Source: Gammaproteobacteria bacterium
GTDB lineage: Bacteria; Pseudomonadota; Gammaproteobacteria; SZUA-229
Length of the DNA: 64,000 nt
Reading direction: 5' to 3'
NCBI GenBank assembly: GCA_024636785.1
Contig: JAGXGK010000017.1
Location: 42,284 to 106,283 of the forward strand
In this document: positions 1,356-52,861 of the stretch, piece after piece
Layout: each line of letters begins with the position of its first letter
Numbering within the stretch: the first letter of the stretch is position 1
Notes under the pieces: generated by a model
Told to the model about the DNA's origin: nothing
The model's input: only the letters and a program-made list of their open reading frames with translations
Database searches by the model: none
Program-made: the position numbers and the translations under genes

Positions 1356-1717
1356 GGGGGCGACATGGCTTCGACGTGGGTAGCAAAACCTGAGGTGCAT
1401 GCAGAGGTGTGAATTTCCTCTTAAATCCAGTCACAAAAAATATAGTTGCCAACGACGACAACTACGCTTTAGCAGCTTAAACTCCTGCGTAAAGCCCTCG
1501 GCCTGATGTGTGCTTATACGCTCAGATAACCGGGGTCGACTCATATAAGATCGCGATGAAGCATTTCCGGTGTGGATTCGTTAAAACCTATCCGGAATCG
1601 CCATCAGTCTTCCCCGCCCGTTGGGTAGCTGCTGGCTAAACTAAAGAACGGGATAAGCATGTAGAGCCGATGGCGGAGTGCTTGCGGACGCGGGTTCGAT
1701 CCCCGCCGCCTCCACCA
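1356..1717 (+). ncRNA. ssrA: tmRNA (transfer-messenger RNA)
   Basis: 5' GGGGGCG pairs with 3' CGCCUCC-ACCA, including a G3-U wobble. The tRNA-like 3' end is GGACGCGGGTTCGATCCCCGCC...CCACCA. Internal tag ORF GCC AAC GAC GAC AAC TAC GCT TTA GCA GCT TAA = ANDDNYALAA at 1448-1480. Confidence 0.93.
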
Positions 1718-3056: not shown

Positions 3057-3379
3057 AGCTCATCCCCAAGTAGACCTTGCCACGGGTCATCCGATAAAGC
3101 TTTAGTATCTTTGACCTCCCCTGCCGATTTGGTAGCTCGTGCTGAAGGCTCCTCGTTTTCAAGAACTGCCAGAACTGCACTCAGTTTTTCTTTAGGAATG
3201 AGCATGATTTCACTATTGAGGCCCTTTGCAATCAGTTCCACGGTATCCAGCCTGGGATTCCCCTTCGCCTCCAGCCTTTGATATTGTTGTCTCGAAACAC
3301 CGACACGCAGGCGCATATCACTTTGCTTAAGCCCGAGCACTAGACGCCGTTTTTTGATCTGTTGAAGTAAAGAAGTCAT
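3053..3379 (-). CDS. hipB: HipB-like XRE-family HTH antitoxin
   Basis: 108 aa; HTH region LGLKQSDMRLRVGVSRQQYQRLE. ATGA overlap with hipA. Confidence 0.8.
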   Translation of the reverse strand: MTSLLQQIKKRRLVLGLKQSDMRLRVGVSRQQYQRLEAKGNPRLDTVELIAKGLNSEIMLIPKEKLSAVLAVLENEEPSARATKSAGEVKDTKALSDDPWQGLLGDEL

Positions 3380-3390
3380 AATGTCATCAT

Positions 3391-3458
3391 ATATGTTGCT
3401 TATTTCTGGATAGCAACATATTAGCTTCTTATTTCACCAATAGCAACATATCTATTGC
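3391..3458. promoter_or_regulatory. Putative HipB operator palindromes (ATATGTTGC-N13-GCAACATAT and AGCAACATATCTATTGCT)
   Basis: Perfect 9-bp inverted repeat 3391-3399 / 3413-3421 immediately upstream of hipB, with a second TTGCT/AGCAA palindrome at 3441-3458. Confidence 0.5.
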
Positions 3459-3838
3459 TTTTAAAAAGTAACTGAGTTGGCACAGAGAAAGCAATAAATG
3501 CGTTGCCTAACCGGCTATTCCGGCCACTAGCCTCTCAATACAATAGATAACGAAGTACAGAAACTGGTATCTGACTTAGCCGGTTTCGCCACCAAATAAT
3601 TATTCACCCTTATAATTATGTTAGATAGTGGCGGGGGTAAGAAATTATGAGCATTATTATCATAATGTGGTAGATGCATCTGCTATGTATGACAACGCAG
3701 GTAATGAGCCAATGTTTATTAATTAGAGAGAAGAACTACGAATCAGAACAAAAGAATTTACAAAAGACCCTGATTTGTCAGGGTTCTAGATGTCTAGAAC
3801 ATAAGCATCCCAATTAACCATTTCGATTAAAATACCCC

Positions 3839-5122
3839 ATGAACCAGAAACGCCACACCTCCCCTGCACGTCGCCGCGATTACCATAAATCGCGTTCATC
3901 CACTGCACCCTCTCTGCCGAAAGTCGATTTCGACGGGGCGCGGCTTTTTTTGCAGGCGGGGCGTGAAAAATCGCTGCTGCGGCGTCATCCGTGGGTGTTT
4001 TCGGGGGCGGTAGAGCGGCTGGAAGGTGAGGCTGTTAGTGGCGACACGGTTCAGGTCTGCGATGCGCAGGGTGGTTTTCTGGCCTGGGCGGCTTTCAATT
4101 CGCAGTCGCAAATTATCACGCGGGTGTGGTCGTGGCAGGCTCTGGATAAAATTGATGCGGATTTTTTCCGGCGCAAAATTGCCACTGCTATCGCCGCGCG
4201 CAAAGCGCTCAAGCTGGATCTGCACAGCAACGGTATGCGGCTGATTCATGGCGAGTCGGATGCCCTGCCCGGCCTGATCGTCGACCAGTATGCGGATGTG
4301 CTGGTGCTGCAACTGGGCAGTGCCGGTGCGGAGCGCTGGCGCGACACTATCGCGGATGTGTTGCAGGAATTATGTCAGCCGGTGTGCATTTATGAGCGTT
4401 CGGATTCTGACGGGCGCGAGCTGGAAGGTTTGCCACGGCGCAATGAAGTCCTGCGCGGGCAATTGCCCGAAACACTGAGCATCACCGAAAACGGTATTCG
4501 CATTGCGGTGGATGTGGCCGCAGGCCAGAAGACCGGCTTTTATCTCGACCAGCGTGATAACCGTGCGCTGGTCGGCGAGCTGGCCGAGGGGCGCGAGGTG
4601 CTCAACTGTTTCTGTTATACCGGCGGCTTCTCGCTGTATGCGCTGCGCGGCGGCGCGCAATCGGTGCTGTCGATTGATTCTTCGGCTGAAGCGCTGCAAC
4701 TGGCGCAGCGCAATGTCGAGCTGAATGGGTTCGATGCCGGCCGTGCCGATTGGCAGGACAAGGATGTCTTCGAAGCGCTACGCAAACTGCGCGATCAGAA
4801 TCGCAAGTTCGACCTCATTGTGCTCGACCCGCCCAAATTTGCACCCACCGCCGCCTTCGCTGAAAAAGCCGCGCGCGCTTACAAGGACATCAACCTGCTC
4901 GGTTTCAAGCTGCTGCGACCGGGCGGAATTCTGGCCACCTTCTCCTGCTCCGGCGGCATCAGCGACGATCTATTTCAGAAAATCATTGCCGGAGCGGCGT
5001 TAGATGCGGGCATTGATGCGCAAATTGTACATAAACTGTACGCGACGGCAGATCACCCGGTACTACTGAGCTTCCCGGAAGGCGCTTATTTGAAAGGACT
5101 GGTGTTACGGGTGGCGGGTTAA
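3839..5122 (+). CDS. rlmI: 23S rRNA m5C1962 methyltransferase RlmI
   Basis: Conserved REKSLLRRHPWVFSGAV start region, PUA-like N domain, SAM-methyltransferase core. The first ~30 aa are probably an over-extension; TTG near 3947 is a possible alternative start. Confidence 0.8.
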   Translation: MNQKRHTSPARRRDYHKSRSSTAPSLPKVDFDGARLFLQAGREKSLLRRHPWVFSGAVERLEGEAVSGDTVQVCDAQGGFLAWAAFNSQSQIITRVWSWQALDKIDADFFRRKIATAIAARKALKLDLHSNGMRLIHGESDALPGLIVDQYADVLVLQLGSAGAERWRDTIADVLQELCQPVCIYERSDSDGRELEGLPRRNEVLRGQLPETLSITENGIRIAVDVAAGQKTGFYLDQRDNRALVGELAEGREVLNCFCYTGGFSLYALRGGAQSVLSIDSSAEALQLAQRNVELNGFDAGRADWQDKDVFEALRKLRDQNRKFDLIVLDPPKFAPTAAFAEKAARAYKDINLLGFKLLRPGGILATFSCSGGISDDLFQKIIAGAALDAGIDAQIVHKLYATADHPVLLSFPEGAYLKGLVLRVAG

Positions 5123-5242
5123 AAAACCTGGGGAGGCTCAGTTCAATGGCATCAACCTGAAGCCATCTTCCTGACGCAAAAGCCGGATAGCTTCTATTTG
5201 TGAGCATAATAGAAAATTTTATTTTTAACGGGGGTTTTGTTA

Positions 5243-5872
5243 ATGAACCGTAAACCACGACCGCTGATAAAAACCGGCTGCGCAAACGACTGCCTGGGTG
5301 AGTGGCGGCAGCAGTTGTTGAGCCGCCGCCGCTTTTTGTTGCTCGCAGCCGGTGGTAGCCTGGCGACGCTATTGCCATTATCGTCATCGGCTTCCGTTAA
5401 CCAAGCCGACAGCGACAAAGCGTCTGCAAGTAAGCAGGAAACCGATCCCTGGCCTGTCATCGATGCAGTGCAGCAGCATCTTTTTCCGAGTGAAGTGCAG
5501 GCGCCGGGAGCACATGAAATCAATGCACTGGGTTATCTGAAATTTGTTGTCAGTGATAACACGCTCGATAGTGAGAGCCGTGAATTTATCACCCGCGGTG
5601 CAGCATGGTTGCAGGATATGTCAATGCAGATGTTTAACAGATCATTTGTCAAACTCGATGAGACGGAATCGGAGAAGGTATTACGCCGTATCGCCACCAG
5701 CAACGCGGGTGAGAACTGGTTGGCGACTCTGCTGTTATATATCGTCGAGGCACTGCTCACTGATCCGGTATATGGCGGTAATATCGATGAAGCCGGCTGG
5801 CGCTGGTTAGAGCATGTGCCGGGTTTTCCGCGGCCACCGCTGGATAAAACTTTTTTAAGGTTACTGAGATGA
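5243..5872 (+). CDS. GMC oxidoreductase small subunit (gluconate 2-dehydrogenase subunit 3 family) with Tat signal
   Basis: Twin-arginine motif SRRRFLLLAAGGSLA. ATGA overlap with the downstream flavoprotein gene. RBS GGGG 8 nt before ATG 5243. Confidence 0.6.
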   Translation: MNRKPRPLIKTGCANDCLGEWRQQLLSRRRFLLLAAGGSLATLLPLSSSASVNQADSDKASASKQETDPWPVIDAVQQHLFPSEVQAPGAHEINALGYLKFVVSDNTLDSESREFITRGAAWLQDMSMQMFNRSFVKLDETESEKVLRRIATSNAGENWLATLLLYIVEALLTDPVYGGNIDEAGWRWLEHVPGFPRPPLDKTFLRLLR

Positions 5873-13854: not shown

Positions 13855-14370
13855 TTAGAAACGCGCACCGACACCGACATTCAAGCCAGTCACATCAACG
13901 CCATCATCAGCGTAGTAAATTGAGTAGTTTACGGCCAGATAGGTCGAGCCACTGCCCAGATCAATCTCTGCGCCAAACCCCAACATCAAGTCGCTGTCAT
14001 CCGTAGATACCTCTATTCCCGCATATTCTGCAGTGAGTGTCGTAGTGCTTGAGCCTAATTGACCATAGAGCCTGACGGTGTCACTGACCGGCGCGCCCGC
14101 ACGCATATACAGAGTGCCTACATCAACATTTAAATCTACCGAGCTGTTCGGCAACTGATCGGGGCTGACCGTTACATTGGCTTCGATGCCAACATTAATG
14201 TAAGGATTGATTATATAACCGCCCCGGATATAAATATTAGTCGGCGATATTTCATCAACGCCGTCATTAAAAGTAATAAAGCCTAATCCGCCATCAACAT
14301 ACCAGTTCTCTGCCAGAACCTGAGAACTAAACATCATCGTTGCGCACAACAAATAAATGTTTTTTTTCAT
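13855..14370 (-). CDS. Outer-membrane beta-barrel protein (OmpW/OmpA-like small porin)
   Basis: Signal peptide MKKNIYLLCATMMFSSQVLA, alternating beta-strand pattern, C-terminal Phe. Confidence 0.7.
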   Translation of the reverse strand: MKKNIYLLCATMMFSSQVLAENWYVDGGLGFITFNDGVDEISPTNIYIRGGYIINPYINVGIEANVTVSPDQLPNSSVDLNVDVGTLYMRAGAPVSDTVRLYGQLGSSTTTLTAEYAGIEVSTDDSDLMLGFGAEIDLGSGSTYLAVNYSIYYADDGVDVTGLNVGVGARF

Positions 14371-14587
14371 TACACTATCCCCTTAAAAATAATAATATTC
14401 TCATTTGTAAAATATCCTGCCCTTTTAATTTTTAACACTTCCTCCACTCAAAACCACTGTTACTAAGAATACACTCAGATAACTTGTGCAACACTGATAT
14501 GAATCAACTGCTACCGGCTTCTGAGTCTCTCGTATTTTTTCTTCGCCACCGATGCGCTTCGTACCTCAGCACATCCTGCAAAAGATA

Positions 14588-14654
14588 TTTTCTCTGCGCC
14601 TCCGCGGTTATTCCGGACTTCCTGTCCTCTACCCTTCGGGCCAACCTGCGGTTG
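14588..14654. repeat. MITE terminal module (half element) homologous to 60874-60940 (reverse orientation)
   Basis: TTTTCTCTGCGCCTCCGCGG...CCTTCGGGCCAACCTGCGG is about 85% identical to the reverse complement of 60874-60940. Confidence 0.55.
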
Positions 14655-14731
14655 TTCAAATTTATTCCATCATTAGGTTCATCAACGGTGTTTCCATGCA
14701 CGACGGCGTCGAGTGAGTAGCCGCTACGCCG

Positions 14732-15019
14732 TTATTCCAGAATAAAATCGATCAACAATAATGAATTGCGCGCCACGATACCGGCGAGTGCGATGATACC
14801 GATCATCGAAGTGGCGGTGAAATACTGGCCCATGATGGCGTTACCGGGCAGCACGCCGATGACGGTTAGCGGGATGGCGAAAGAGCGGTAGTAACCGACC
14901 AGCACCAGATAAATCAGAATAATCGATACGGCAAAGGCCGAACCGGCGTCCACGTCCTGACGTAGCATTGGTATCGGCGAACTCCTTTCAATCCTGAGTG
15001 GACAATTCGAGAGTTGCAC
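14732..15019 (-). pseudogene. Fragment of a CzcA/CusA-type RND efflux pump (about 80 aa of TM region)
   Basis: VLVGYYRSFAIPLTVIGVLPGNAIMGQYF...IVARNSLLLIDFI matches the RND TM helix region. There is no surrounding gene body, and a MITE fragment abuts it. Confidence 0.65.
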
Positions 15020-15128
15020 TTGTGAAGTGAATCCGCGATAAAAAAATTACTTGGGAACTTCTCTGTAACCTGATAGCCTACGCAACCTAGTATTTTGAAC
15101 CTAACATCATAGGTGCTTTACCTTTCTC

Positions 15129-15479
15129 ATGGTCCGCTATTTCCTAAGCTGTTTATTGGCTGCACTTATTGCCCTGCAATCAGTGGTTGCCATAGCGGAC
15201 GCTTATGAGCTTCATCAATCAGAAACAGAGTATCTGGAAATAAATCATTCGCAGCAGTCTTCTGATGCGAAAAACGATAACCAGCTTGTCAAACAGTCGC
15301 CCGACAAACCGGACCAGCTTCAATACGATTATCACCATTGCTGTCATGGCCATGTCTCCATGATACCTTTCGACTCTTCATCACATTTCGCTACTTTCTC
15401 AGAAACGAGACTGGTCGACTATCAGGCCAATCTGACCTCTGTTATTCCCACCTCTCTGTATCGCCCTCCAATCGCCTGA
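15129..15479 (+). CDS. Secreted His/Cys-rich small protein (possible periplasmic metal-binding protein; DUF2946-like is a guess)
   Basis: Signal peptide, motif DYHHCCHGHVSM. Sits upstream of czcCBA. Confidence 0.4.
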   Translation: MVRYFLSCLLAALIALQSVVAIADAYELHQSETEYLEINHSQQSSDAKNDNQLVKQSPDKPDQLQYDYHHCCHGHVSMIPFDSSSHFATFSETRLVDYQANLTSVIPTSLYRPPIA

Positions 15480-15560
15480 TCACGCCTCACAGGCACGTCA
15501 TCAGCCGCTGTAACCATGGGTTATAGCGAACAATTGGTATTTATTTTAGGGTGAAACATC

Positions 15561-15815
15561 ATGAAAAAGATCGCTATCGCGCTCGCTCCGAGCCTCGCAT
15601 TTGTCAACTCCGCTCAGGCCGAAAACAACTTGCCTGAAGTTGAAATCGTCAAAACCGTAAACCAACGCCGGCATTTTCGCCGGATTGCCGTGAACAATAA
15701 CGACACGGAACTAGCCAAACTCGGACGGATGAACCCTCAGCTAAAGGCCGCCTTTCACCGGGATGAACCCCGACAACTGCAAAATCCGGTGCACGACCAA
15801 ACCGTCGCACGCTGA
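15561..15815 (+). CDS. Small secreted hypothetical protein
   Basis: Signal peptide MKKIAIALAPSLAFVNSAQA. 18 nt upstream of czcC. Confidence 0.35.
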   Translation: MKKIAIALAPSLAFVNSAQAENNLPEVEIVKTVNQRRHFRRIAVNNNDTELAKLGRMNPQLKAAFHRDEPRQLQNPVHDQTVAR

Positions 15816-15832
15816 ATTTCAGGAGCATCATT

Positions 15833-17059
15833 ATGAGACGATTCGACTGGCCCCGACAGGCCTTGCTAGGCGCGTGTGTGCTTATTCTGCCCCTGCTTGC
15901 GCACGCACAAACTTCCGACTGGAACGTCTGGCTGGCATCCCAGATAAAACAGCACCCTGACGTGCTCGCTGCCCGCGAGCAATGGCTGGGTTCCAATGCC
16001 AGCGCCGACGCGGTGGCGCAGCCGCTCCACAACCCGGAGCTGTCCACCGAGCTGGAACGCAATGGCGAGGAAGACAACTACCAGGTCGGCATTCAGCAGA
16101 CCATCGACTGGTGGGACAAACGAAGCGCGAGACAGCAGCAAGCGGGTTTTATGCGAGTCGCTGCCGAAGCCATGTACCGCCGGCAAGTACTGGATAAAAC
16201 CGCCGAGGTGCTTTCGGTACTCGTCGAGTGGCGCTCTGCCAGCCGCGCCGCCACCATTGCACAGGCGCAAAAGGAGCAACTCGACACCCTGCTAACGTTG
16301 GCAGAAAAGCGTCAAAAAGCGGGCGATCTGGGCAGCATCGATGCCGAGCTCACCTTTCTGTCGCTGTCGCAACGCCTGGCGCAGGTCGCCGAGGTTGAAG
16401 CTACTTTACAGAAAGCTGAAATCAGGGCACGTGAATTGCTGCCACAGTGGACACCCGCGCGCGGTGGCATTCCCGAGAATTTCTGGCCGACCCAGCCAGG
16501 TTCCGCGACGGATCAGGAGCTGCTGCAACATCCGGCTGTCGCCAGTGCTCAGGCCCGTTGGCAATCACTGAAGGAAGAAGCCGAGGTGACACGGCGTACC
16601 GCCAGAGCGGAACCCACCGTCGGACTCAATGCCGGGCGCGATGGCGGAGAGAATCTGGTGGGATTATCCCTCTCCATTCCGCTGAATGTGCGCAACAACT
16701 TCAGTGCAGAAACCCGCGCCGCCGAGCAGGCAGCACTGGAGGCGGAGGCTCACTTTCAGGCGGTTTACCGCAAACAACGCTTCGACTTGCAGACTGCCCA
16801 GGCTGTCTGGCAGCGCTATGAACAACAATACCGTCGTTGGCAAAAGCTGGTTCAGGGCCGGGTGGAGAACAGCGCCGACCTGCTGGAACGGCAGTGGCGC
16901 AGCGGCGACCTCTCCACTACCGATTACCTGCTGGCATTGAATCAACGCGCCGAGAGTCTGCTGGCAGGCATCGAGCTGGAAAAACAGACCCGGCTCACAC
17001 TCACCGATGTACTGCTGCAATCGGGCCGCCTGACGGCCGCGACACAACTAACAAATTAA
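15833..17059 (+). CDS. czcC: TolC-family outer membrane efflux protein (CzcC/CusC-like)
   Basis: 408 aa, signal peptide, two-repeat OEP architecture. First gene of a CBA operon. Confidence 0.8.
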   Translation: MRRFDWPRQALLGACVLILPLLAHAQTSDWNVWLASQIKQHPDVLAAREQWLGSNASADAVAQPLHNPELSTELERNGEEDNYQVGIQQTIDWWDKRSARQQQAGFMRVAAEAMYRRQVLDKTAEVLSVLVEWRSASRAATIAQAQKEQLDTLLTLAEKRQKAGDLGSIDAELTFLSLSQRLAQVAEVEATLQKAEIRARELLPQWTPARGGIPENFWPTQPGSATDQELLQHPAVASAQARWQSLKEEAEVTRRTARAEPTVGLNAGRDGGENLVGLSLSIPLNVRNNFSAETRAAEQAALEAEAHFQAVYRKQRFDLQTAQAVWQRYEQQYRRWQKLVQGRVENSADLLERQWRSGDLSTTDYLLALNQRAESLLAGIELEKQTRLTLTDVLLQSGRLTAATQLTN

Positions 17060-28129: not shown

Positions 28130-28345
28130 TGGTTGTAACATAGTTGGCAATTGGGAGTAAAAGCTTAAATGCTCGGACAAAACTTGCCTGCCTGCATACA
28201 CTGCCCCTCTCCCACTGGGCGAGGGCTGGGGTGAGGAGGTTTCAATCTGCGCTACTATTTTTTCAGGCAACCATAAATCACATAAACAGCATTCATCTGC
28301 GAAATAAGTTTTTTGTTACATCCAACCCAGATAAAAACCCAGTCT

Positions 28346-28420
28346 GCGAAGAACGCCAAAGACGCGAAAAGGTCAAAAACGATTGATTAAAGTTTTTTTT
28401 GCGTCTTTGGCGTTATTCGC
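28346..28420. repeat. REP-like imperfect palindrome (GCGAAGAACGCCAAAGACGCGAAAA ... TTTTGCGTCTTTGGCGTTATTCGC)
   Basis: About 24-bp arms with 1-2 mismatches and an A/T-rich loop. Relatives at 52771-52861, 47684-47770 and 26105. Confidence 0.5.
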
Positions 28421-28495
28421 TGATACGTTTTTGTTTTTAGCTATTAAATTGATTGATCTATTTTTAATCCTGCCTCAACATGCTCAACAACTGCA

Positions 28496-28509: not shown

Positions 28510-28594
28510 TGACGTAACGATCACTTTCTGTGAGGATTTCTTACTCATGAATTCAGCGACAATGATGGATAATAATAATAAGGTTCAGGACTAA

Positions 28595-30465
<1,871 letters not shown>

Positions 30466-30473
<8 letters not shown>

Positions 30474-30774
30474 GCCGAAACCTGAGCGCAGTAACGAGAA
30501 AAAACCGCTCGGTGAGAAGGTGGGGCAGAGCGCGGCACGTAAACAACGCGCACGCGAACAAAATCAGCGTACCGCCTGGTTCGGGCTGGGCATGTTCGGG
30601 CTGGTCGGCTGGTCTGTTGCCATCCCTACTCTGCTCGGGATTTTTCTGGGCGTATGGCTCGACGGCCTCTATCCGGGCCGCGCTTCCTGGACGCTGACTT
30701 TTCTCATTCTGGGACTGGCGCTGGGTTGCCTCAATGCCTGGTACTGGATCAAACAGGAGAGTCGCCGTGAATGA
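30466..30774 (+). CDS. atpQ: N-ATPase AtpQ (AtpZ/AtpI-like small membrane subunit)
   Basis: 102 aa with a basic N-terminus and 2 TM helices. Overlaps the atpC stop. Confidence 0.6.
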
Positions 30775-31981
30775 AGCAAACAATCTGGCGCAAATTCTGA
30801 TCACCTTTGGCGGCCTGTTTCTGATTGGGCTGCTGGCCGATCTGTTGGGTCGGCATACGCCCCTGCCCCGGGTCACGCTGTTATTGCTAAGCGGCTTTGC
30901 CATCGGCCCTTCACTGCTCGACCTGCTGCCGGCCTTTACCGACCAGTGGTTCCCGGTACTCACCAACATCGCACTGGCCATGATCGGCTTTTTGCTGGGC
31001 CAGAACCTAACCCGTAAGCGCTTGTCCGAACTTGGGCGTCCAGTGCTCGCCATGTCGATTGGTGAAGTGATTATGACGGCCCTGCTGGTGTTCACCGTGC
31101 TGCGGCTGTTCGGGGTGTCGATGGAAATCGCATTGTTGCTGGCCGGCGTCGCCCCGGCCACTGCACCCGCGGCCACGGTCGATGTGGTGCATGAATACGG
31201 GGCCAAAGGAAAATTTACCGACACGCTGTTAGGTATTGTGACGATTGATGATGCCTGGGGGCTGCTGGTTTTTAGCCTGCTGCTGGCGACCGCTCAGTCC
31301 CTGAGCGGTGCGGAGGGTGCATGGCAAATTATCCAGACCGGTGCCTGGGAAGTTGGCGGCGCGATTTTGCTCGGCATCGTGCTCGGCCTGCCCATGGCCT
31401 ACCTTACCGGACGCATACTGCCCGGCGAACCTTCACAGGCGGAAGCTCTGGGGGTGGTGTTGCTCAGTGCCGGTGTCGCGGAATGGCTGAATGTTTCCTA
31501 CATCCTGTCGGCTATGGTGCTCGGTGCCACTGTAGCCAATTTAGCCAAACACCATGATCGCCCATTCAATGCCATCGAAGGCATTGAATGGCCATTCCTG
31601 ATTCTGTTTTTCCTGCTGGCGGGCGCGTCGCTGCACATCGACGCCCTGGCACAGGCGGGGGCGCTGGCTGCCGGTTATATTGCTTTGCGCATCGCCGGTC
31701 GACTTATCGGCACACGCCTCGGCGGCTGGCTGAGTGGCACAGACACCACAATCCGCCAATGGATCGGACTCGCGCTGTTACCTCAGGCCGGTGTCGCCAT
31801 CGGCATGGCGTTGATCGCCAGTCATCACTTCCCGGAAATCAAAGACGTGATTCTGCCGGTGGTGCTGGGGGCAACCGTCATCTTCGAAATTGTCGGTCCC
31901 ATCGCTACCCGCTGGACACTTATTCATGTCGGTGACATCACCAATAACAATAAACATAGACATAAAAAGACGCTCTCATGA
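30734..31981 (+). CDS. Cation:proton antiporter (CPA1/CPA2 superfamily, Na+/H+ exchanger-like) embedded in the N-ATPase operon
   Basis: 415 aa, about 12 TM helices, Na_H_Exchanger-like core (GVAPATAPAATVDVV...). Overlaps atpQ at the 5' end (alternative GTG start 30766) and atpR at the 3' end (ATGA). Confidence 0.8.
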   Translation: MPGTGSNRRVAVNEANNLAQILITFGGLFLIGLLADLLGRHTPLPRVTLLLLSGFAIGPSLLDLLPAFTDQWFPVLTNIALAMIGFLLGQNLTRKRLSELGRPVLAMSIGEVIMTALLVFTVLRLFGVSMEIALLLAGVAPATAPAATVDVVHEYGAKGKFTDTLLGIVTIDDAWGLLVFSLLLATAQSLSGAEGAWQIIQTGAWEVGGAILLGIVLGLPMAYLTGRILPGEPSQAEALGVVLLSAGVAEWLNVSYILSAMVLGATVANLAKHHDRPFNAIEGIEWPFLILFFLLAGASLHIDALAQAGALAAGYIALRIAGRLIGTRLGGWLSGTDTTIRQWIGLALLPQAGVAIGMALIASHHFPEIKDVILPVVLGATVIFEIVGPIATRWTLIHVGDITNNNKHRHKKTLS

Positions 31982-32304
31982 ACGAACTAATCCTTTATGG
32001 CGGCACTTTCATCGCAGGCCTCCTGCTGGGGATGCTGTTTTTCGGCGGCCTCTGGCTCACCCTGAACGGGCTTGAACGATCTCGTCACCCCGCGCTGAGA
32101 TTGCTGACCAGCCTGCTACTGCGTGTCACTCTGGTGCTCAGCGGATTTTATGCAATCGCTCAACTCGATGCCTGGCAGCACCTGCTGATGGCGCTCGCCG
32201 GCTTCATTACATCGCGATGGTGGATGACTCGGCGGTTGCGGACGATCAGCCATAAATCGTTGCCCGCCCACCTGACTCACAGCAAAAAGGAGACCATGAC
32301 ATGA
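31978..32304 (+). CDS. atpR: N-ATPase AtpR subunit
   Basis: 108 aa with 3 TM helices and conserved Arg in TM. ATGA overlaps on both sides. Confidence 0.6.
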   Translation: MNELILYGGTFIAGLLLGMLFFGGLWLTLNGLERSRHPALRLLTSLLLRVTLVLSGFYAIAQLDAWQHLLMALAGFITSRWWMTRRLRTISHKSLPAHLTHSKKETMT

Positions 32305-33047
32305 CCATTAGTCCCGACGGTCTCATCTTCCAGCAATGGGGCTGGTTTTCGCTCAATGCCACCATTGTCTATACCTGGCTGGTGATGGCGCTGCTCACGC
32401 TCATTTCCTGGCTGGTGACACGGCGCATGTCCACCGGCACCGAACTGCCCGCCTGGCAGAACCTGCTGGAGGTGCTGGTGACCGGCATTCGCGATCAGAT
32501 TCGTCAGGTCAGCCAGCAGAATCCGGGGCGTTATCTGCCTTTTGTCGGCAGCCTTTTTCTGTACATCGCCATGGCCAATCTGCTCAATATTGTGCCGGGG
32601 TACATGGCCCCGACCGGCTCGCTCTCCACCACGACGGCGCTGGCCATCTGCGTGTTTATCGCCGTGCCGATCTACGGCATCGCGTATCAAGGGCCGGTGA
32701 ATTATCTGAAGCACTATGTCAAACCGACCTGGCTGATGCTGCCGTTCAACATTATCGGTGAAATCTCACGCACCATTGCGCTGGCCGTGCGTCTGTACGG
32801 CAACATCATGAGCGGCACGGTTATCGTAGCTATTCTAATCAGCCTGACGCCCTATTTTTTCCCGGTGGTGATGGCGCTGCTGGGGCTGCTGACCGGCATG
32901 ATTCAGGCCTACATCTTCGCCGTTCTGGCCATGGTTTACATCGCCTCGGCGACCTCGCTACACTCGGGAGAAAGCGATGATGAGCAGCAATCGTCGCTAA
33001 CAGACACACCCGAAAAAGATAACCGGACATCCCCTAACACTGACTAA
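32301..33047 (+). CDS. atpB: Fo a subunit
   Basis: 248 aa; LAVRLYGNIMSG motif with the stator Arg of a-subunits. Confidence 0.85.
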   Translation: MTISPDGLIFQQWGWFSLNATIVYTWLVMALLTLISWLVTRRMSTGTELPAWQNLLEVLVTGIRDQIRQVSQQNPGRYLPFVGSLFLYIAMANLLNIVPGYMAPTGSLSTTTALAICVFIAVPIYGIAYQGPVNYLKHYVKPTWLMLPFNIIGEISRTIALAVRLYGNIMSGTVIVAILISLTPYFFPVVMALLGLLTGMIQAYIFAVLAMVYIASATSLHSGESDDEQQSSLTDTPEKDNRTSPNTD

Positions 33048-33057
33048 GGAGTATTTT

Positions 33058-33336
33058 ATGGACATGATTACCTACATCGGCATGGCATCCATCGTCACCG
33101 CCGGCATTACCATCGCCATTGGCTCCATCGGCCCGGCACTGGGCGAAGGACGCGCCGTCGCCCAGGCATTGAGCGCCATCGCCCAGCAGCCGGATGAAGC
33201 CAACACCATCACCCGAACGCTGTTTGTCGGCCTGGCAATGATCGAGTCCACGGCCATCTACTGTTTCGTGGTGGCCATGATCCTGATTTTCGCCAACCCT
33301 TTCTGGGATTACGCCACCGCCACAGCCGGGGGTTAA
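33058..33336 (+). CDS. atpE: Fo c subunit with complete Na+-binding signature (Q..E-S-T..Y)
   Basis: GEGRAVAQALSAIAQQPDE ... LAMIESTAIYCFV. The Gln + Glu-Ser-Thr + Tyr ligand set is characteristic of Na+-translocating c-rings. Confidence 0.85.
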   Translation: MDMITYIGMASIVTAGITIAIGSIGPALGEGRAVAQALSAIAQQPDEANTITRTLFVGLAMIESTAIYCFVVAMILIFANPFWDYATATAGG

Positions 33337-33339
33337 GGC

Positions 33340-34110
33340 ATGCAGATCGACTGGATCACAGTATCGGCGCAGATCGTCAACTTTCTAATTCTGGTCTGGC
33401 TGCTCAAACGCTTTCTATACCATCCGGTAATGCGCGCCATGGAGCAACGCGAACAGCGCATCGCCGATCGTTTGAACAAGGCCGAAGCACGCGAACAGCA
33501 GGCCAGTGAACAGCAGCAGCAATATCAGCATAAAACCGAAGAGCTGGAACGGAAGCGCGATGAAATGCTGATTAAAGCTCGCGAACAGGCCGAACAGGGA
33601 AAGCGGCAGCTGCTGGATGAAGCGCGTGCTATCGTCGCCGAAACTCGGAAGCAATGGCAGCAGCAGGCGGCTCAGGAAAAGGCTGATTTTTTCAACCGGC
33701 TGAAACAGGAAACCGCCGAAGCTATTCAGGCTATCGCGCGCAAAGCGCTCAAGGATCTGGCCGATGCCGGACTGGAAGAGCAGCTCATCGAAAAATTCAT
33801 CGAACAGCTCAAAGTCGCAGACAAGGATTTGCAGCAAACGCTCCACCACAACACAGGCCCACTGCGTATCCATACCGCCTATGAACTGGATTCGACGGTG
33901 CGCGCCCGACTCACCCGCTTCATGCACGAACATTTTTCTGCGGATATCCAGGTCGAATACAGCACCACGCCGGAACTGCTGTGCGGCATCCTGCTGGTGA
34001 GCGGCGACCGGCAGCTGGGCTGGAATCTGAACGAGTATCTGGATGATCTCAGCGAGCGCATGGATGAGGCTTTCAGTTCGGTCAGGCCTTCGGCAAAACA
34101 GGAGGATTAG
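33340..34110 (+). CDS. atpF: Fo b subunit (long, coiled-coil)
   Basis: N-terminal TM helix followed by a charged coiled-coil region. Confidence 0.7.
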   Translation: MQIDWITVSAQIVNFLILVWLLKRFLYHPVMRAMEQREQRIADRLNKAEAREQQASEQQQQYQHKTEELERKRDEMLIKAREQAEQGKRQLLDEARAIVAETRKQWQQQAAQEKADFFNRLKQETAEAIQAIARKALKDLADAGLEEQLIEKFIEQLKVADKDLQQTLHHNTGPLRIHTAYELDSTVRARLTRFMHEHFSADIQVEYSTTPELLCGILLVSGDRQLGWNLNEYLDDLSERMDEAFSSVRPSAKQED

Positions 34111-34113
34111 CGC

Positions 34114-35682
34114 GTGCTGCAGCAACTGCTCGATGACACCATGACCCGCCTGCACGAGGTAATCGAGAGCAGTGCCCCTGCTCTGCATACGCGTGAAACC
34201 GGCACGGTGCTGTCTGTGGGTGGGGGCATCGCCCGCGTCAGTGGCTTGCCCAGCCTCACCTCGGAAGAACTGGTGCAGTTCCCGGACGGGGTGCTGGGCG
34301 TGGCTATTAACCTTGAGGCCGATGTCGCCGGGATAATGCTGCTTGGCGATAGTGCCAGACTGTCGGCGGGCATTGAAGTCAGCGCCACCGGCCGCGAGGC
34401 CGACACCCCGGTTGGTGAAGGGCTGCTGGGGCGGGTGATCGATGCCACCGGAAAGGTGCTGGATCACGGCAAAGCCCTGCAATTCAGTGAACGCCGACCG
34501 GTGGAACGCCCGGCGCCCGCCATCATCGACCGCTCGCCGGTGACGGTACCGCTGGAAACCGGCATCAAGGCCATCGACGCTCTCATTCCCATCGGTCGCG
34601 GCCAGCGTGAACTCATCGTCGGCGACCGCCAGACCGGCAAAACCTCGGTGGCGGTCGACACCATCATTAATCAGCGTGACAAAAACGTCATATGCATCTA
34701 CTGCGCCATCGGCCAGCGCGGCACTGCGGTCTCCCGGGTAGTGGAGACGCTACGCAAACACAAAGCGCTGGCGCACACCATCGTGGTGGTCGCCTCGGAT
34801 GAAGACCCGCCCGGCCTGCGCTTCATCACCCCCTATGCCGCCACCACCATGGCCGAATATTTTATGGAACAGGGGCGCGATACGCTAATTGTTTATGACG
34901 ACCTCACCCGCCATGCCCGGGCCTATCGTGAACTATCCCTGCTGCTGCGTCGACCACCGGGGCGCGAGGCTTATCCGGGTGATATTTTCTACATTCATTC
35001 GCGTCTGCTGGAACGCGCCACTCACCTGCGCGACGGCGGCTCGCTGACCGCGTTACCGGTGATCGAAACACAGGCCCAGGACATCTCCGCCTACATCCCG
35101 ACTAATCTGATCTCCATTACCGATGGCCAGATCTATCTTTCACCGGCGTTGTTTCACAAAGGCCTGTTGCCCGCGATTGACGTCGGCAAATCGGTATCTC
35201 GGGTCGGCGGCAAAACGCAGTACCCGGCATTTCGCAGTGTCTCCGGCGATCTACGCCTCTCGTATTCACAGTTCGAAGAGCTGGAAACCTTCGCGCGCTT
35301 CGCCACCCGCATGGATGAAGATACGCGCCGAACAATCGAACACGGTCGACGCGTACGCGAAGTGCTGAAACAGCGCGAACATCATCCACTGCGCGCTAGC
35401 GAACAGATGGCGATACTCAAAACGCTCAATGCCGGAATGCTTGATAACCTGCCTCTGGAGCAGATCGCTAAAGCTGAAATGAAAATTCAGCAACGCATCG
35501 TCAATGAATTTCCCGAGCTTTGTGAAAGCATGGAAAAGGGTGAAAAACTGGATGATGCACAATGGCAGCCGCTACTGGAAATCGCCGAGAAGATACTGTC
35601 TGAAATGCGCGACGACGCTGAAAAACCTGAACAATCCGGCCCATCTGAAAGCGCTGATCAAAGCGAAGCTGCGCAGGAATAA
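34114..35682 (+). CDS. atpA: F1 alpha subunit
   Basis: Walker A GDRQTGKT, 522 aa. GTG start. Confidence 0.93.
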
Positions 35683-35685
35683 AGT

Positions 35686-36579
35686 ATGGAATCACTCGAC
35701 CAATTGCACAAACAACTCGACAGCCTCAACGAATTGCGCACCATCGTCAAAACCATGAAAGCCCTCTCGGCGGCGAGTATCAATCAATACGAGCAGGCGG
35801 TTAATGCACTCGCCGGTTATTATCAAACAGTGGCACGTGGCCTGCACGTGGTAATGAGAGACATGGAATCGGCACCTCCCCCAACTGCGCATACCGACAA
35901 GCCCCGGCGACTGGCCGCCATCGTTTTAGGTTCCGACCACGGACTCTGCGGCCGCTTCAACGAAGACATTGCCAGCTATGCGCTGGACAGCATGAACTCA
36001 ACCACTGCCGAACCAGAAAACCGCCTCATCCTCGCAGTGGGCGCCCGCGTTGCGTCCAGTCTGGAAAGCAATGGTCAGGCCATCGAAGAAAATTTCCTTG
36101 TCCCCGGCTCGGCCGAACAGATCACCGCCAGCGTGCAGCAGATCCTGCTTAAAATCGATGAATGGCGCGAACAGTCCGGAATGGAGCATGTCTACCTGTT
36201 CTACAATCGTCATTCCGGTGGCAGCAGTTACCAGTCTACTGGTTTTAAATTACTGCCAATCGACCTGCGCAATTTTCATCGCCTTAAAGAAGAACACTGG
36301 CCCTCACGCAGCCTGCCCACCTTCAGCATGAACCGCGAACAGCTACTTAGCCGCCTGCTGCATCAGTATCTTTTCGTTTCGATCTTCCGCGCCAGTGCCG
36401 AATCTCAGGCCAGTGAACACGCCAGCCGATTGGCGGCGATGCAATCGGCACAGCGTAATCTCGATGAACGACTGGGTGAAGTCACCATGGTGTTCCGACG
36501 TGCCCGACAAAACGCTATCACCTCCGAGTTGCTGGACGTTGTCTCCGGTTTTGAAGCACTGACCGGAATTGAAAAATAG
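35686..36579 (+). CDS. atpG: F1 gamma subunit
   Basis: 297 aa; conserved C-terminal helix AITSELLDVVSG. Confidence 0.85.
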   Translation: MESLDQLHKQLDSLNELRTIVKTMKALSAASINQYEQAVNALAGYYQTVARGLHVVMRDMESAPPPTAHTDKPRRLAAIVLGSDHGLCGRFNEDIASYALDSMNSTTAEPENRLILAVGARVASSLESNGQAIEENFLVPGSAEQITASVQQILLKIDEWREQSGMEHVYLFYNRHSGGSSYQSTGFKLLPIDLRNFHRLKEEHWPSRSLPTFSMNREQLLSRLLHQYLFVSIFRASAESQASEHASRLAAMQSAQRNLDERLGEVTMVFRRARQNAITSELLDVVSGFEALTGIEK

Positions 36580-36600: not shown

Positions 36601-36748
36601 CACCGCAGAGGTCGCAAAGAACGCAGAGGAAAATCTTGTTTTTTTATATAATAATTTTAAACATTTTATATGCGGGCATACGTTCTTTTTCTTAATTAAA
36701 AAGCGAACTAAAATTATCTATTTTTTCTCTGCGTTCTTTGCGACCTCT
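36601..36748. mobile_element. MITE-like element with about 28-bp TIRs (CACCGCAGAGGTCGCAAAGAACGCAGAGGAAAA ... TTTTTTCTCTGCGTTCTTTGCGACCTCT) and A/T-rich core
   Basis: Inverted termini flank a roughly 90-bp AT-rich spacer. Related elements at 49337-49476 and 60838-61158. Confidence 0.55.
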
Positions 36749-36930
36749 AATTCATCCTGAAAAATAACGCCTCCATCGCTTGCCTGATCCGAGGTTGGCA
36801 AAGAAAAACTTCTAAAGTTTAACGATTATACAGCTTCTACACAGGAGCGTGATGCGGCAAATACTTTCTAGACAGCATTTGCCGCCAGTATGCTGGCAGC
36901 GGTGACCTCCTCCGGAACCTTGATGATGAA

Positions 36931-37104
36931 TTAGCGCTCTCTAAGTTTATGTATTGCTTTGCGCAGAAAAGCAATCTGTTTATTGTAATTAGAGCAGCCA
37001 GAACAAATGAACAGGTGAAAGCGCAGGCGAATACGTTCAGGCAGAGATAATTCCCGATCCTGTGACTGCGACACCAGGCGGGTCGCCTGTTTACAATTCA
37101 TCAT
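36931..37104 (-). CDS. zf-HC2 type anti-sigma factor (57 aa, below ORF-track threshold)
   Basis: Manual translation gives MMNCKQATRLVSQSQDRELSLPERIRLRFHLFICSGCSNYNKQIAFLRKAIHKLRER, with the H-x3-C-x2-C motif. Its start overlaps the stop of the ECF sigma gene (ATGATGA). Confidence 0.55.
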   Translation of the reverse strand: MMNCKQATRLVSQSQDRELSLPERIRLRFHLFICSGCSNYNKQIAFLRKAIHKLRER

Positions 37105-37694
37105 GAAAGCCGCCCTCCCCGTATATAGTTATTTTCCAGACATTTTCGTAGCTGCGAGCGTGCGCGGTGCATGATCACCCAGGCATTGCTGTCGCTCAGA
37201 TTAAGCTCCCTGCACACCTCCTTAAGCTCAAGCCCGAGGTGTTCCCGCATCATAAATACACGGGAGGTATTAGCAGGCAGATGATTAAGGCAGATTTCAA
37301 AAATGACCCAGAACTGTTCATTATCGAAATTTTTTTCCGGTTGTCCCCAGTCAGAGGGCTTGTGGGTTTTTTTCCAGTGGTCTCTGCCATCAAACGCCTC
37401 ATCATCGTTGTCGTTATCTTCGATAAAAGATTCCGTCGGGTAGCGACTGCGTTCGCGGATAACATCAATAATTTTGTTCCGCAGTATGGCAAACACCCAG
37501 CTCTTAAGGCTGCCCCGGCCATTGAATTTTGCTGTTGAGATAGCAGCACTAATGGCTTCATGGACAATGTCCTCTGCCAGCACTGCATCGCGCAACTGCA
37601 AGGTGGTAAAGCGCAGCATCTCTTCCCTCATTGATGCAACCTGTTCGGCATCAACATAACCGGAATGCGAAGCGTGTACTGCGTTCTTATCCAA
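37101..37694 (-). CDS. ECF-subfamily RNA polymerase sigma-70 factor
   Basis: Region 2 (AEDIVHEAISAAISTAKFNGRGSLKSWVFAILRNKIID) and region 4 (LKEVCRELNLSDSNAWVIMHRARSQLRK). Confidence 0.85.
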   Translation of the reverse strand: MDKNAVHASHSGYVDAEQVASMREEMLRFTTLQLRDAVLAEDIVHEAISAAISTAKFNGRGSLKSWVFAILRNKIIDVIRERSRYPTESFIEDNDNDDEAFDGRDHWKKTHKPSDWGQPEKNFDNEQFWVIFEICLNHLPANTSRVFMMREHLGLELKEVCRELNLSDSNAWVIMHRARSQLRKCLENNYIRGGRLS

Positions 37695-37792: not shown

Positions 37793-38392
37793 CTAAGTCT
37801 TTAACCAGCGATTTTTAAACCAGTAGTCGATAGAGAGATAACGCCCCGCGCCATAGAAGAACAACACCAGCAGCATGATGAAATAGGTGGCCGCGAACTC
37901 GATGCCATTATTGAGCATAACAAGACTGCCATGCTCTGTTAGCCAGCTGTAATTACCGTGCTCTCTTAAAATTTCTTTGGCGACATCAAGACGTTCGATT
38001 GCGGCGACAGTGCGATCATTGGCGAAAAGACTGCCTGAGCCTTCCGCGATGGCCAGCCAGCCGTTTTTCCAGTGCACCGTAAACATAGCCACCAGCATCG
38101 TTACCATCAGCGGAATCGTTATCCAGCGAACAGCCAGCCCGACGAGCAATAATATGGCACCGCCCGATTCCGTCAGGGCCGCAGCCCAGGCCATAATTTC
38201 AGGAAACGGCAGACCGAGACCCCAGTCCGGATTGCCGAACCATTCAATGGTGGAATCCATATTAGCCAGTTTTTTGGTTCCCGCCGTCCAGAATATCGGC
38301 ACCAGATACAGTCGTAATGCCAGCGGCGCGAGAAAATCAGCCGATTTTGTGATGTTCAGTATTTCATATAATTTGTTAAATGTCCGTTTCAT
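37793..38392 (-). CDS. DoxX-family membrane protein (HvfX-like RiPP-metallophore partner)
   Basis: 199 aa, DoxX-like TM helices (LRLYLVPIFWTAGTKK...). Sits directly downstream of the HvfA-like precursor. Confidence 0.65.
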   Translation of the reverse strand: MKRTFNKLYEILNITKSADFLAPLALRLYLVPIFWTAGTKKLANMDSTIEWFGNPDWGLGLPFPEIMAWAAALTESGGAILLLVGLAVRWITIPLMVTMLVAMFTVHWKNGWLAIAEGSGSLFANDRTVAAIERLDVAKEILREHGNYSWLTEHGSLVMLNNGIEFAATYFIMLLVLFFYGAGRYLSIDYWFKNRWLKT

Positions 38393-52602: not shown

Positions 52603-52770
52603 GTCGACTGATACGTTTTTAAAAGCCCCCTCACCCCAACCCTCTCCTGAAAGGTGAGGGAGTAGTGCATGCAGTCCTGCAAGTTCAGCCTGAGAATTAA
52701 AGCTTTTGCGGCCAACTACCAACTCACTTTTCACTCCACAAATGAACGCAGATTAGAACAAATCTTTGAT

Positions 52771-52861
52771 CCGCGAAAAACGCCAAGGACGCGAAAAAAA
52801 CCGTTTGTATTACTGTTTTTATCCTTTTCGCGTGTTTGGCGTCATTCGCGGACTTTATTTT
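52771..52861. repeat. REP-like palindrome (CCGCGAAAAACGCCAAGGACGCGAAAAAAA ... TTTTCGCGTGTTTGGCGTCATTCGCGG)
   Basis: Arms about 80% complementary. Family member of 28346-28420. Confidence 0.5.

Follow-up and report, generated by a model that had tools for sequence, protein, structure and literature searches.

What is a gene for a secondary cation/proton antiporter (CPA) doing in the middle of an operon for a rotary ATPase of the N type (N-ATPase), and is its presence there more than an accident of one genome? The question is raised by a stretch of 64,000 nucleotides (the window, as the whole of it is called here) from Gammaproteobacteria bacterium (GTDB lineage Bacteria; Pseudomonadota; Gammaproteobacteria; SZUA-229; assembly GCA_024636785.1, contig JAGXGK010000017.1, positions 42,284 to 106,283 of the forward strand), in which such a gene is placed between atpQ and atpR. 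An earlier note on this DNA had regarded the gene as a singular, undescribed insertion and had proposed that exchanger and pump form a functional pair. The first of these views did not survive: no fewer than 19 species-level genomes share the layout, cyanobacteria show it again with another CPA, and it had left a trace in the literature (Dibrova 2010, PMC2881411). CPA linkage is a recurrent, apparently convergent and scarcely described variant of the operon and not a one-off insertion. The second is supported as the most reasonable reading of the data, the role of the pair being one that we infer. For the locus as a whole, the interpretation that we favor, with about an even chance of being right, is that two transporters are made from the operon: an N-type rotary ATPase that spends ATP to translocate Na+ and, co-translated with it, a secondary Na+(Li+)/H+ antiporter with the NhaA/NapA fold.

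Assignments with Pfam and NCBIfam models divide the ten same-strand genes at 28595-36579 (forward strand) into nine N-ATPase genes and one CPA gene:

28595 to 30058, forward strand: atpD, N-ATPase beta subunit (TIGR03305 alt_F1F0_F1_bet, 739 bits; PF00006)
30045 to 30473, forward strand: atpC, epsilon subunit, its start overlapping the end of atpD (TIGR03166, 1e-42; PF02823)
30466 to 30774, forward strand: atpQ, AtpZ/AtpI-like small membrane protein (PF09527, 2.8e-15; TIGR02230, 8e-41)
30767 to 31981, forward strand: CPA-superfamily cation/proton antiporter, 404 aa (PF00999, 1.1e-33)
31978 to 32304, forward strand: atpR, N-ATPase-specific small membrane subunit (PF12966, 1.4e-19; TIGR03165 above cut-off)
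32301 to 33047, forward strand: atpB, a subunit (TIGR03306, 346 bits)
33058 to 33336, forward strand: atpE, c subunit with a Na+-type motif (TIGR03322, 164 bits)
33340 to 34110, forward strand: atpF, long b subunit with a delta-like (OSCP-like) C-terminus (TIGR03321; PF00430 and PF00213)
34114 to 35682, forward strand: atpA, alpha subunit (TIGR03324, 783 bits)
35686 to 36579, forward strand: atpG, gamma subunit, the last gene of the operon (TIGR03323, 315 bits)

The complete canonical order atpD-C-Q-R-B-E-F-A-G is kept and the only departure from it is the extra gene between Q and R, just as the earlier note had described. The "alternate F1F0" subfamily models TIGR03306, TIGR03322, TIGR03321, TIGR03324, TIGR03323 and TIGR03166 all exceed their cut-offs, with the atpD score of 739 falling slightly under the 752 required by TIGR03305. 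AtpF is 256 aa long, with the PF00213 match at residues 110-241, and no open reading frame (ORF) for a separate delta subunit (atpH) is present inside the operon. The Na+ ligand set of the c subunit consists of E30 in helix 1 and E63-S64-T65-x-x-Y68 in helix 2; the E-S-T and Y that had been read from the sequence at the outset are thus borne out, but the supposed Gln is a Glu, E30. N-ATPase c subunits have been described as carrying a Glu in helix 1 and an ESTxxY pattern in helix 2 (Dibrova, Galperin & Mulkidjanian 2010, PMC2881411), and in comparison with the canonical operon of that study the window has the same nine genes in order, AtpR, no delta subunit, a long b subunit and the Glu plus ESTxxY c subunit, and differs by an additional 404-aa CPA gene, located at the ancestral atpR start-codon position. 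No second atp operon was found within the 64-kb window, which is part of the genome.

How firmly the antiporter gene is tied to its neighbors is seen at its two borders:

30756 to 30774, forward strand: atpQ/CPA junction, a Shine-Dalgarno-like AGGAGAG followed by a GTG start that overlaps the atpQ stop by 8 nt (GTGAATGA)
31978 to 31981, forward strand: CPA/atpR junction, ATGA, a stop/start overlap of 4 nt

The coupling on both sides that had been noticed earlier is therefore present, from the atpQ overlap at the 5' end to the ATGA shared with atpR. The AGGAGAG lies 5 nt upstream of the start codon GTG 30767. The start first assigned to the gene, ATG 30734, which would give 415 aa, was abandoned, as this upstream in-frame codon is not conserved and the relatives keep GTG 30767 (404 aa). 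Terminator-like signals above the shuffled expectation were not found within the operon. Because of the 8-nt overlap with atpQ, the 4-nt overlap with atpR and the lack of an internal excess of terminator-like signals, co-expression of the CPA with the atp genes is close to unavoidable.

The same junction gives an indication of how the gene may have arrived. Canonical operons show the same 8-nt overlap, typically ATGAATGA, between the atpQ stop and the start of atpR, and AtpR begins with M-N-E; such an overlap is seen in Nitrospira loci with adjacent atpQ and atpR and in plasmids of Legionella anisa, Hymenobacter and Croceicoccus. The window CPA starts exactly at this canonical atpR start (GTGAATGAA, V-N-E), and atpR, now located downstream, starts with ATGAACGAA (M-N-E-L), repeating the first three codons of the CPA gene. 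In members of the CPA family that are unlinked or come from Nitrospirales the N-terminus is different and shorter, M-[D/E]-x-x-P-x-I-L-I. From this anatomy we infer that the CPA gene was inserted at the atpR initiation site, with duplication of about three codons, and that it took over the coupling of atpR to atpQ. The RTGANTGA geometry of the atpQ/CPA junction is common to 10 loci of the gammaproteobacterial type and to cyanobacterial loci of the kind described below. Two Nitrospirales loci with the CPA gene between atpQ and atpR (the Q-CPA-R arrangement) have a junction spacer of about 110-130 nt instead of the overlap, and their CPA belongs to the Nitrospirales clade, which indicates a separate linkage event. 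A CPA-AtpR fusion considered for Nitrospirales loci L027 and L033 was rejected, since translation shows a stop codon and separate ORFs.

Is the arrangement a property of this genome or of a wider group? When the CPA protein was scanned against GTDB, with each species represented by one genome, 165 relatives came up; 80 loci were kept, and linkage to an N-ATPase at these 80 loci was established by tblastn of the window ATPase proteins against each locus. The complete atpDCQ-CPA-RBEFAG layout is present at 18 of the 80 loci, so that with the window it occurs in at least 19 species-level genomes. The closest is a Gammaproteobacteria metagenome-assembled genome (MAG; locus L001) with 88% DNA identity to the window and syntenic flanks, probably a member of the same genus. 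Carriers include Cellvibrionaceae, Granulosicoccaceae, Woeseiaceae and Chromatiales MAGs, as well as MAGs labelled Thermodesulfobacteriota or Pseudomonadota; two of the 18 are cultured organisms, Saccharospirillum salsuginis KCTC 22169 and Kineobactrum sediminis F02, and two are the Nitrospirales MAGs mentioned above. At a further 11 of the 80 loci, in Nitrospira/Nitrospirales genomes, the same CPA family lies directly upstream of atpD on the same strand. The neighbors of unlinked homologues look heterogeneous by ORF size and strand.

A second sample, independent of the CPA, was obtained from the PLSDB plasmids, for which the a and beta subunits and the CPA served as queries. An N-type-like a subunit was found in 64 plasmid records, and in three of these, all from Acaryochloris, the operon bears a CPA; no plasmid in the PLSDB search combined a window-type CPA with an N-ATPase. 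The spacing from atpD to atpB is about 0.8-1.4 kb in some 35 plasmid records, bar exceptions, and 2.43 kb in the three Acaryochloris plasmids. Larger spacings in Methylocystis rosea and Paroceanicella plasmids were considered as possible CPA insertions and set aside: one results from an extended a subunit, the other from extra unannotated DNA between atpD and atpC, and neither includes a CPA. The CPA-in-operon variant is thus recurrent but a minority among N-ATPase operons. The earlier note had reasoned that, if many N-ATPase operons carried the gene at this position, it would be a known conserved subunit; many operons do carry a CPA there, but they are the minority just described (3 of 64 plasmid records) and no source was found that names the CPA an N-ATPase subunit.

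In the Acaryochloris operons the antiporter is a different one. Plasmid pREB4 of Acaryochloris marina MBIC11017 (NC_009929.1) carries atpD, atpC, an AtpZ/AtpI gene (PF09527), a CPA gene, AtpR (PF12966) and the genes from atpB onward, the CPA being a 409-aa protein (PF00999, 1.8e-44) annotated in RefSeq as "cation:proton antiporter". The pREB4 and window operons share the Q-CPA-R architecture, the 8-nt atpQ and 4-nt atpR overlaps, a PF00999 protein and an Asp-Asp motif; they differ in the CPA subfamily, and the pREB4 operon is plasmid-borne and cyanobacterial. The two antiporters are barely similar (BLASTP E 0.009 over 104 residues; hhalign E 0.056), the pREB4 protein being about as far from the window CPA as the archaeal NhaP is. 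The cyanobacterial protein is NapA-like, with D-D, a Lys at the position in transmembrane helix (TM) 10 and P-R-A-E in TM11, where the window protein has Arg and P-Q-A-G. Relatives of the pREB4 CPA form a cyanobacterial family, in which the Q-CPA-R layout is found again in a Leptolyngbyaceae MAG and in Xenococcus sp. PCC 7305, and of which unlinked copies exist elsewhere. In the Acaryochloris N-ATPase operon an unnamed "single gene insertion" has been mentioned (Dibrova 2010, PMC2881411), and this was the only trace recovered by a search of the open-access full-text literature, in which no paper discussing a CPA inside or beside an N-ATPase operon was found; genome papers on Nitrospira and Thiohalobacter, lineages that have the window-type CPA family, also do not mention the linkage.

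Two further observations were made in this cyanobacterial group. In Pleurocapsales cyanobacterium LEGE 10410 (L087 2782-6692) an apparent operon remnant, atpC-atpQ-CPA, keeps the 8-nt overlap and is followed by a 102-aa ORF without Pfam match; a NiFe-hydrogenase large-subunit gene occupies the place of atpD and no atpB-G genes lie downstream, so the CPA seems to have outlived the ATPase. In Xenococcus sp. PCC 7305 (L092 10014-11204) a 70-aa ORF and a pair of genes for a ribbon-helix-helix (RHH) antitoxin and a ParE toxin lie between atpF and atpA, which is reminiscent of the unexplained "two-gene insertion" reported for the Cyanothece N-ATPase operon (Dibrova 2010, PMC2881411).

In a neighbor-joining tree of AtpD+AtpB+AtpA the CPA-bearing operons are interleaved with canonical ones, Legionella grouping with the Nitrospira set and PCC 7002 with Acaryochloris. 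Such a linkage pattern fits more than one origin, by parallel capture or by replacement in situ, and suggests that at least three linkage events, or the exchange of one CPA for another in place, may have occurred.

What kind of antiporter is it? That the gene belongs to the CPA superfamily, as first proposed, is confirmed by a full-length match to PF00999 (E 1.1e-33, 117 bits against a gathering cut-off of 26.2, model positions 7-373 of 375). The AlphaFold2 model (pLDDT 80.8, pTM 0.81) has a predicted NhaA-type fold with broken helices, the DSSP breaks lying at residues 129-133 and 337-341, and the top 50 Foldseek matches in the PDB are all CPA antiporters, the best being NapA (5BZ2), followed by SOS1, PaNhaP and NHA2. 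With Thermus thermophilus NapA (5BZ2, 4BWZ), an electrogenic CPA2 protein that was not recovered by sequence search with the window CPA, the TM-score is 0.76 when normalised to the query and 0.80 when normalised to the target, at about 21% identity. The two proteins share the 13-TM NhaA-type fold, which is predicted for the window CPA, and an Asp-Asp pair on the TM5-equivalent helix; they differ in that Lys305 of NapA is replaced by Arg and Arg331 by Gln340 (NapA numbering from Masrati 2018, PMC6181914). The ion site was read with the eight-position motif of the same study:

motif positions 1-4 (TM4): A131-T132-A133-P134
motif position 5: I157
motif positions 6-7: D161-D162
motif position 8 (TM10): R308, assigned by alignment

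The family as a whole has A-T-[A/D]-P, an invariant D-D and an invariant R308, with R312 variable, and its second broken helix reads P-Q-A-G. In 41 close homologues, none of them below 66% identity to the window CPA, D162 never varies, and all the motif strings listed from the 80 loci contain it. According to Masrati 2018 (PMC6181914), Na+ transporters have non-polar residues at motif positions 1 and 4, where K+-selective clades have Ser/Thr, and electrogenic exchange requires two acidic residues and one basic; the window CPA, non-polar at positions 1 and 4 and with D161-D162 plus R308, fits both the Na+ rule and the electrogenic requirement. From the fingerprint of CPA1 (Glu at 5, Asn-Asp at 6-7, Arg at 8) the protein departs at I157 and D161, only the Arg being present, and the a_cpa1 model TIGR00831 scores 33.7 bits against a cut-off of 279.6. 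From the electrogenic CPA2 pattern (Asp-Asp at 6-7, Lys at 8) the invariant D161-D162 is present, with an Arg as the TM10 basic residue by alignment only. The choice between CPA1 and CPA2 that the earlier note had left to be made has thus a mixed outcome, the protein appearing CPA1-like by sequence and CPA2-like in its ion-site motif. An uncharacterised CPA subfamily (A-T-[A/D]-P / D-D / R / P-Q-A-G) straddles the CPA1/CPA2 divide.

Several observations speak for a functional link to the ATPase. An E...ESTxxY c subunit is encoded in 28 of 28 CPA-linked operons checked, a set made up of the window-type Q-CPA-R and CPA-atpD loci, Acaryochloris, the Leptolyngbyaceae MAG and Xenococcus, and the plasmid operons with ETM, ESL or ESV motifs, from Cereibacter, Azospirillum, Methylocystis, Paroceanicella, Sulfuricella, Legionella anisa and Croceicoccus, are without a CPA. 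Within the Q-CPA-R set, pairs of CPA sequences are on average 69% identical, on a par with AtpA (71%) and AtpB (73%) and far above AtpR (43%) and AtpF (47%), and the divergence of the CPA correlates with that of every ATPase subunit (Spearman 0.63-0.83). This core-subunit-like identity and correlated divergence indicate that the CPA is co-inherited with the ATPase and under strong constraint (purifying selection). That many bacteria of unrelated lineages pair the pump with an exchanger, and do so with different exchanger genes, suggests that the two cooperate.

What N-ATPases do for the cell is still debated, with Na+ extrusion, H+ pumping and ATP synthesis as the contending roles. The recurrent, apparently convergent link to Asp-Asp antiporters, confined to operons whose c subunits are of the Na+ type, constitutes guilt-by-association evidence for a Na+/H+ cycle. 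N-ATPases have been proposed as Na+ extruders (PMC2881411). In the mechanism that we envisage, the ATPase would export Na+ electrogenically, generating a membrane potential and a Na+ gradient; the Asp-Asp antiporter would use this potential to move further Na+ out, with more H+ entering than Na+ leaving, and would so return the charge moved out by the pump. The pair would then behave as an ATP-powered, roughly electroneutral exchanger of Na+ (out) for H+ (in), the payoff being salt tolerance and cytoplasmic acidification independent of respiration, which would suit saline, alkaline or low-respiration conditions. In Nitrospira marina the N-ATPase subunits are more abundant at low O2 (PMC8115632), consistent with a role when respiration is limited. 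A co-expressed module of a primary Na+ pump and a Na+/H+ antiporter would presumably serve salt and alkaline homeostasis, the transport direction and the physiological role of the pair being deduced from its parts. A stronger version, in which CPAs were recruited independently on several occasions (two subfamilies, unrelated to each other, at one and the same nucleotide position, and a third architecture besides) because pump and exchanger form an obligate functional, possibly physical, ATP-driven electroneutral Na+/H+ unit, appears unlikely; if true, it would redefine what the N-ATPase is for. If, at the other extreme, two salt-stress genes are here no more than loosely co-regulated, the arrangement is an ordinary operon variant.

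Several points weigh against a Na+ pump coupled to an electrogenic Na+/H+ antiporter. Most Na+-type N-ATPase operons have no linked CPA, those of PCC 7002, Polymorphobacter, Sulfitobacter and Hymenobacter among them, and the existence of such operons means that the CPA is not obligatory. At 51 of the 80 CPA-family loci there is no N-ATPase within 8 kb, 12 of these being too near a contig end to judge. The trees from which separate linkage events are read are neighbor-joining trees without support values. As for the transporter, its substrate and stoichiometry are predictions from a motif rule. The nearest solved proteins by sequence are of the electroneutral CPA1 type, first Pyrococcus abyssi NhaP (4CZ8, 4CZA; profile E 1.6e-8) and then SOS1 and MjNhaP1; the TM4 A-T-x-P of PaNhaP aligns with that of the window CPA, while its TM4 Asp and the Asn of its N-D pair are replaced by Ala and Asp, respectively, and the fingerprint Glu of CPA1 proteins by Ile. 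R308 was placed at position 8 by alignment and not from measured distances; the residue is an Arg and not the Lys of known electrogenic CPAs, and a D-D-R variant that is natural and electrogenic is not reported by Masrati 2018 (PMC6181914).

Four other explanations were weighed. The first, which we regard as rather unlikely, is that the machinery works in the direction of synthesis, the antiporter drawing on the respiratory proton motive force or the membrane potential to build, by moving H+ in and Na+ out, a gradient of Na+ that feeds Na+-driven ATP synthesis, an arrangement that would be useful where the bulk delta-pH is small or reversed. The genomic signs of functional coupling apply here equally and the c subunit is of the Na+ type; a potential-driven Asp-Asp antiporter could build a Na+ gradient exceeding the proton gradient. 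The Aphanothece enzyme is reportedly called a "Na+-dependent F1F0-ATP synthase" in the title of a 2011 paper by Soontharapirakkul. However, nothing in the sequence tells the direction of operation, and it has been argued that an N-ATPase invariably occurs as a second copy, next to an H+ F-ATPase, and that it extrudes Na+ and does not make ATP (Dibrova 2010, PMC2881411).

It is also doubtful that the CPA moves K+ (by K+/H+ antiport or Kef-like efflux) or another cation, balancing charge or osmotic pressure while the ATPase pumps Na+. Relatives carry the Joint Genome Institute (JGI) label "Kef-type K+ transport system membrane component KefB", the name Na+/H+-K+ antiporter GerN has been given to one relative of the Acaryochloris type, and in part of the family an Ala replaces the TM4 Asp, altering the ion site. 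Membership in KefB/KefC was nevertheless rejected, because the 404-aa protein consists of the membrane domain only, without a KTN/RCK domain, scores 16.9 bits against a cut-off of 804 with the KefB model NF002973, and has KefC only in 50th place in the fold search. In addition, the non-polar residues at TM4 motif positions 1 and 4 are unlike the Ser/Thr of K+-selective clades (Masrati 2018, PMC6181914), and among the operons checked the linkage is exclusive to Na+-type c subunits.

Could the gene simply be a passenger that landed in a permissive spot of a mobile operon, with no specific interplay with the ATPase beyond shared ion homeostasis? N-ATPase operons move laterally and accommodate further insertions, such as the toxin-antitoxin pair between atpF and atpA in Xenococcus, and most of them have no CPA; but the linkage is repeated with different CPA families and architectures, the CPA is conserved to the same degree as the core subunits and translational coupling is kept across orders, all of which make a passenger very unlikely. 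That the CPA physically joins the membrane sector of the N-ATPase (in the role of an accessory subunit or within a supercomplex), as its place between atpQ and atpR (whose products are small membrane proteins thought to assist assembly), its tight translational coupling and its subunit-like conservation might imply, is extremely unlikely, since Nitrospirales keep the same CPA family outside the operon core or unlinked and CPAs are normally autonomous dimers.

Around the operon, a 515-nt leader contains a hairpin at 28334-28432 with 37-nt arms, about 160 nt upstream of atpD and followed by a T-run (RNA fold -48 kcal/mol, z -7.8), and a sequence-related copy of this palindrome is found at 52770-52852. 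A different palindrome, with 27-nt arms that are 96% complementary and an 88-nt loop, lies just after atpG (36607-36748). These operon-flanking palindromes could be repeats resembling repetitive extragenic palindromic (REP) or miniature inverted-repeat transposable (MITE) elements, terminators or attenuators. A riboswitch in the leader, for example a Na+-sensing RNA, was considered and rejected: there was no Rfam match at gathering scores, and permissive E-values gave only microRNA matches, spurious because of the long palindrome. In the L001 locus about 2.7 kb and 2.4 kb of extra DNA (3102-5840 and 13862-16228) lie just upstream and downstream of the operon and are absent from the window (28571-28606 and 36632-36931), so the operon borders, where the palindromes sit, are variable. 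Directly downstream of the operon, at 36931-37694 and 37793-38392, both on the reverse strand, there are a 57-aa Cys-rich ORF, a 197-aa putative sigma factor of the extracytoplasmic function (ECF) type and a 199-aa membrane ORF. The sole match at Rfam gathering scores in the 64 kb is a transfer-messenger RNA (tmRNA) gene at 1356-1717, forward strand (RF00023, 226 bits).

Among the plasmid operons, the a subunit of Methylocystis rosea pGW6_1 (L084 3616-5136) is annotated at 506 aa, about twice the usual length, with an N-terminal extension. In Croceicoccus marinus pCME4A9II (L094, about 2200-2510) the c-subunit gene is unannotated and a frameshift appears to break its reading frame (frame 1, then 0), suggestive of either a pseudogene or an error in sequencing. 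The haloarchaeal plasmid of Salinigranum marinum (L100, NZ_CP100463.1) carries an N-ATPase-like operon without an annotated atpR, in which the c subunit is duplicated, with 182 aa, two hairpins, and ESQ and ESL motifs.

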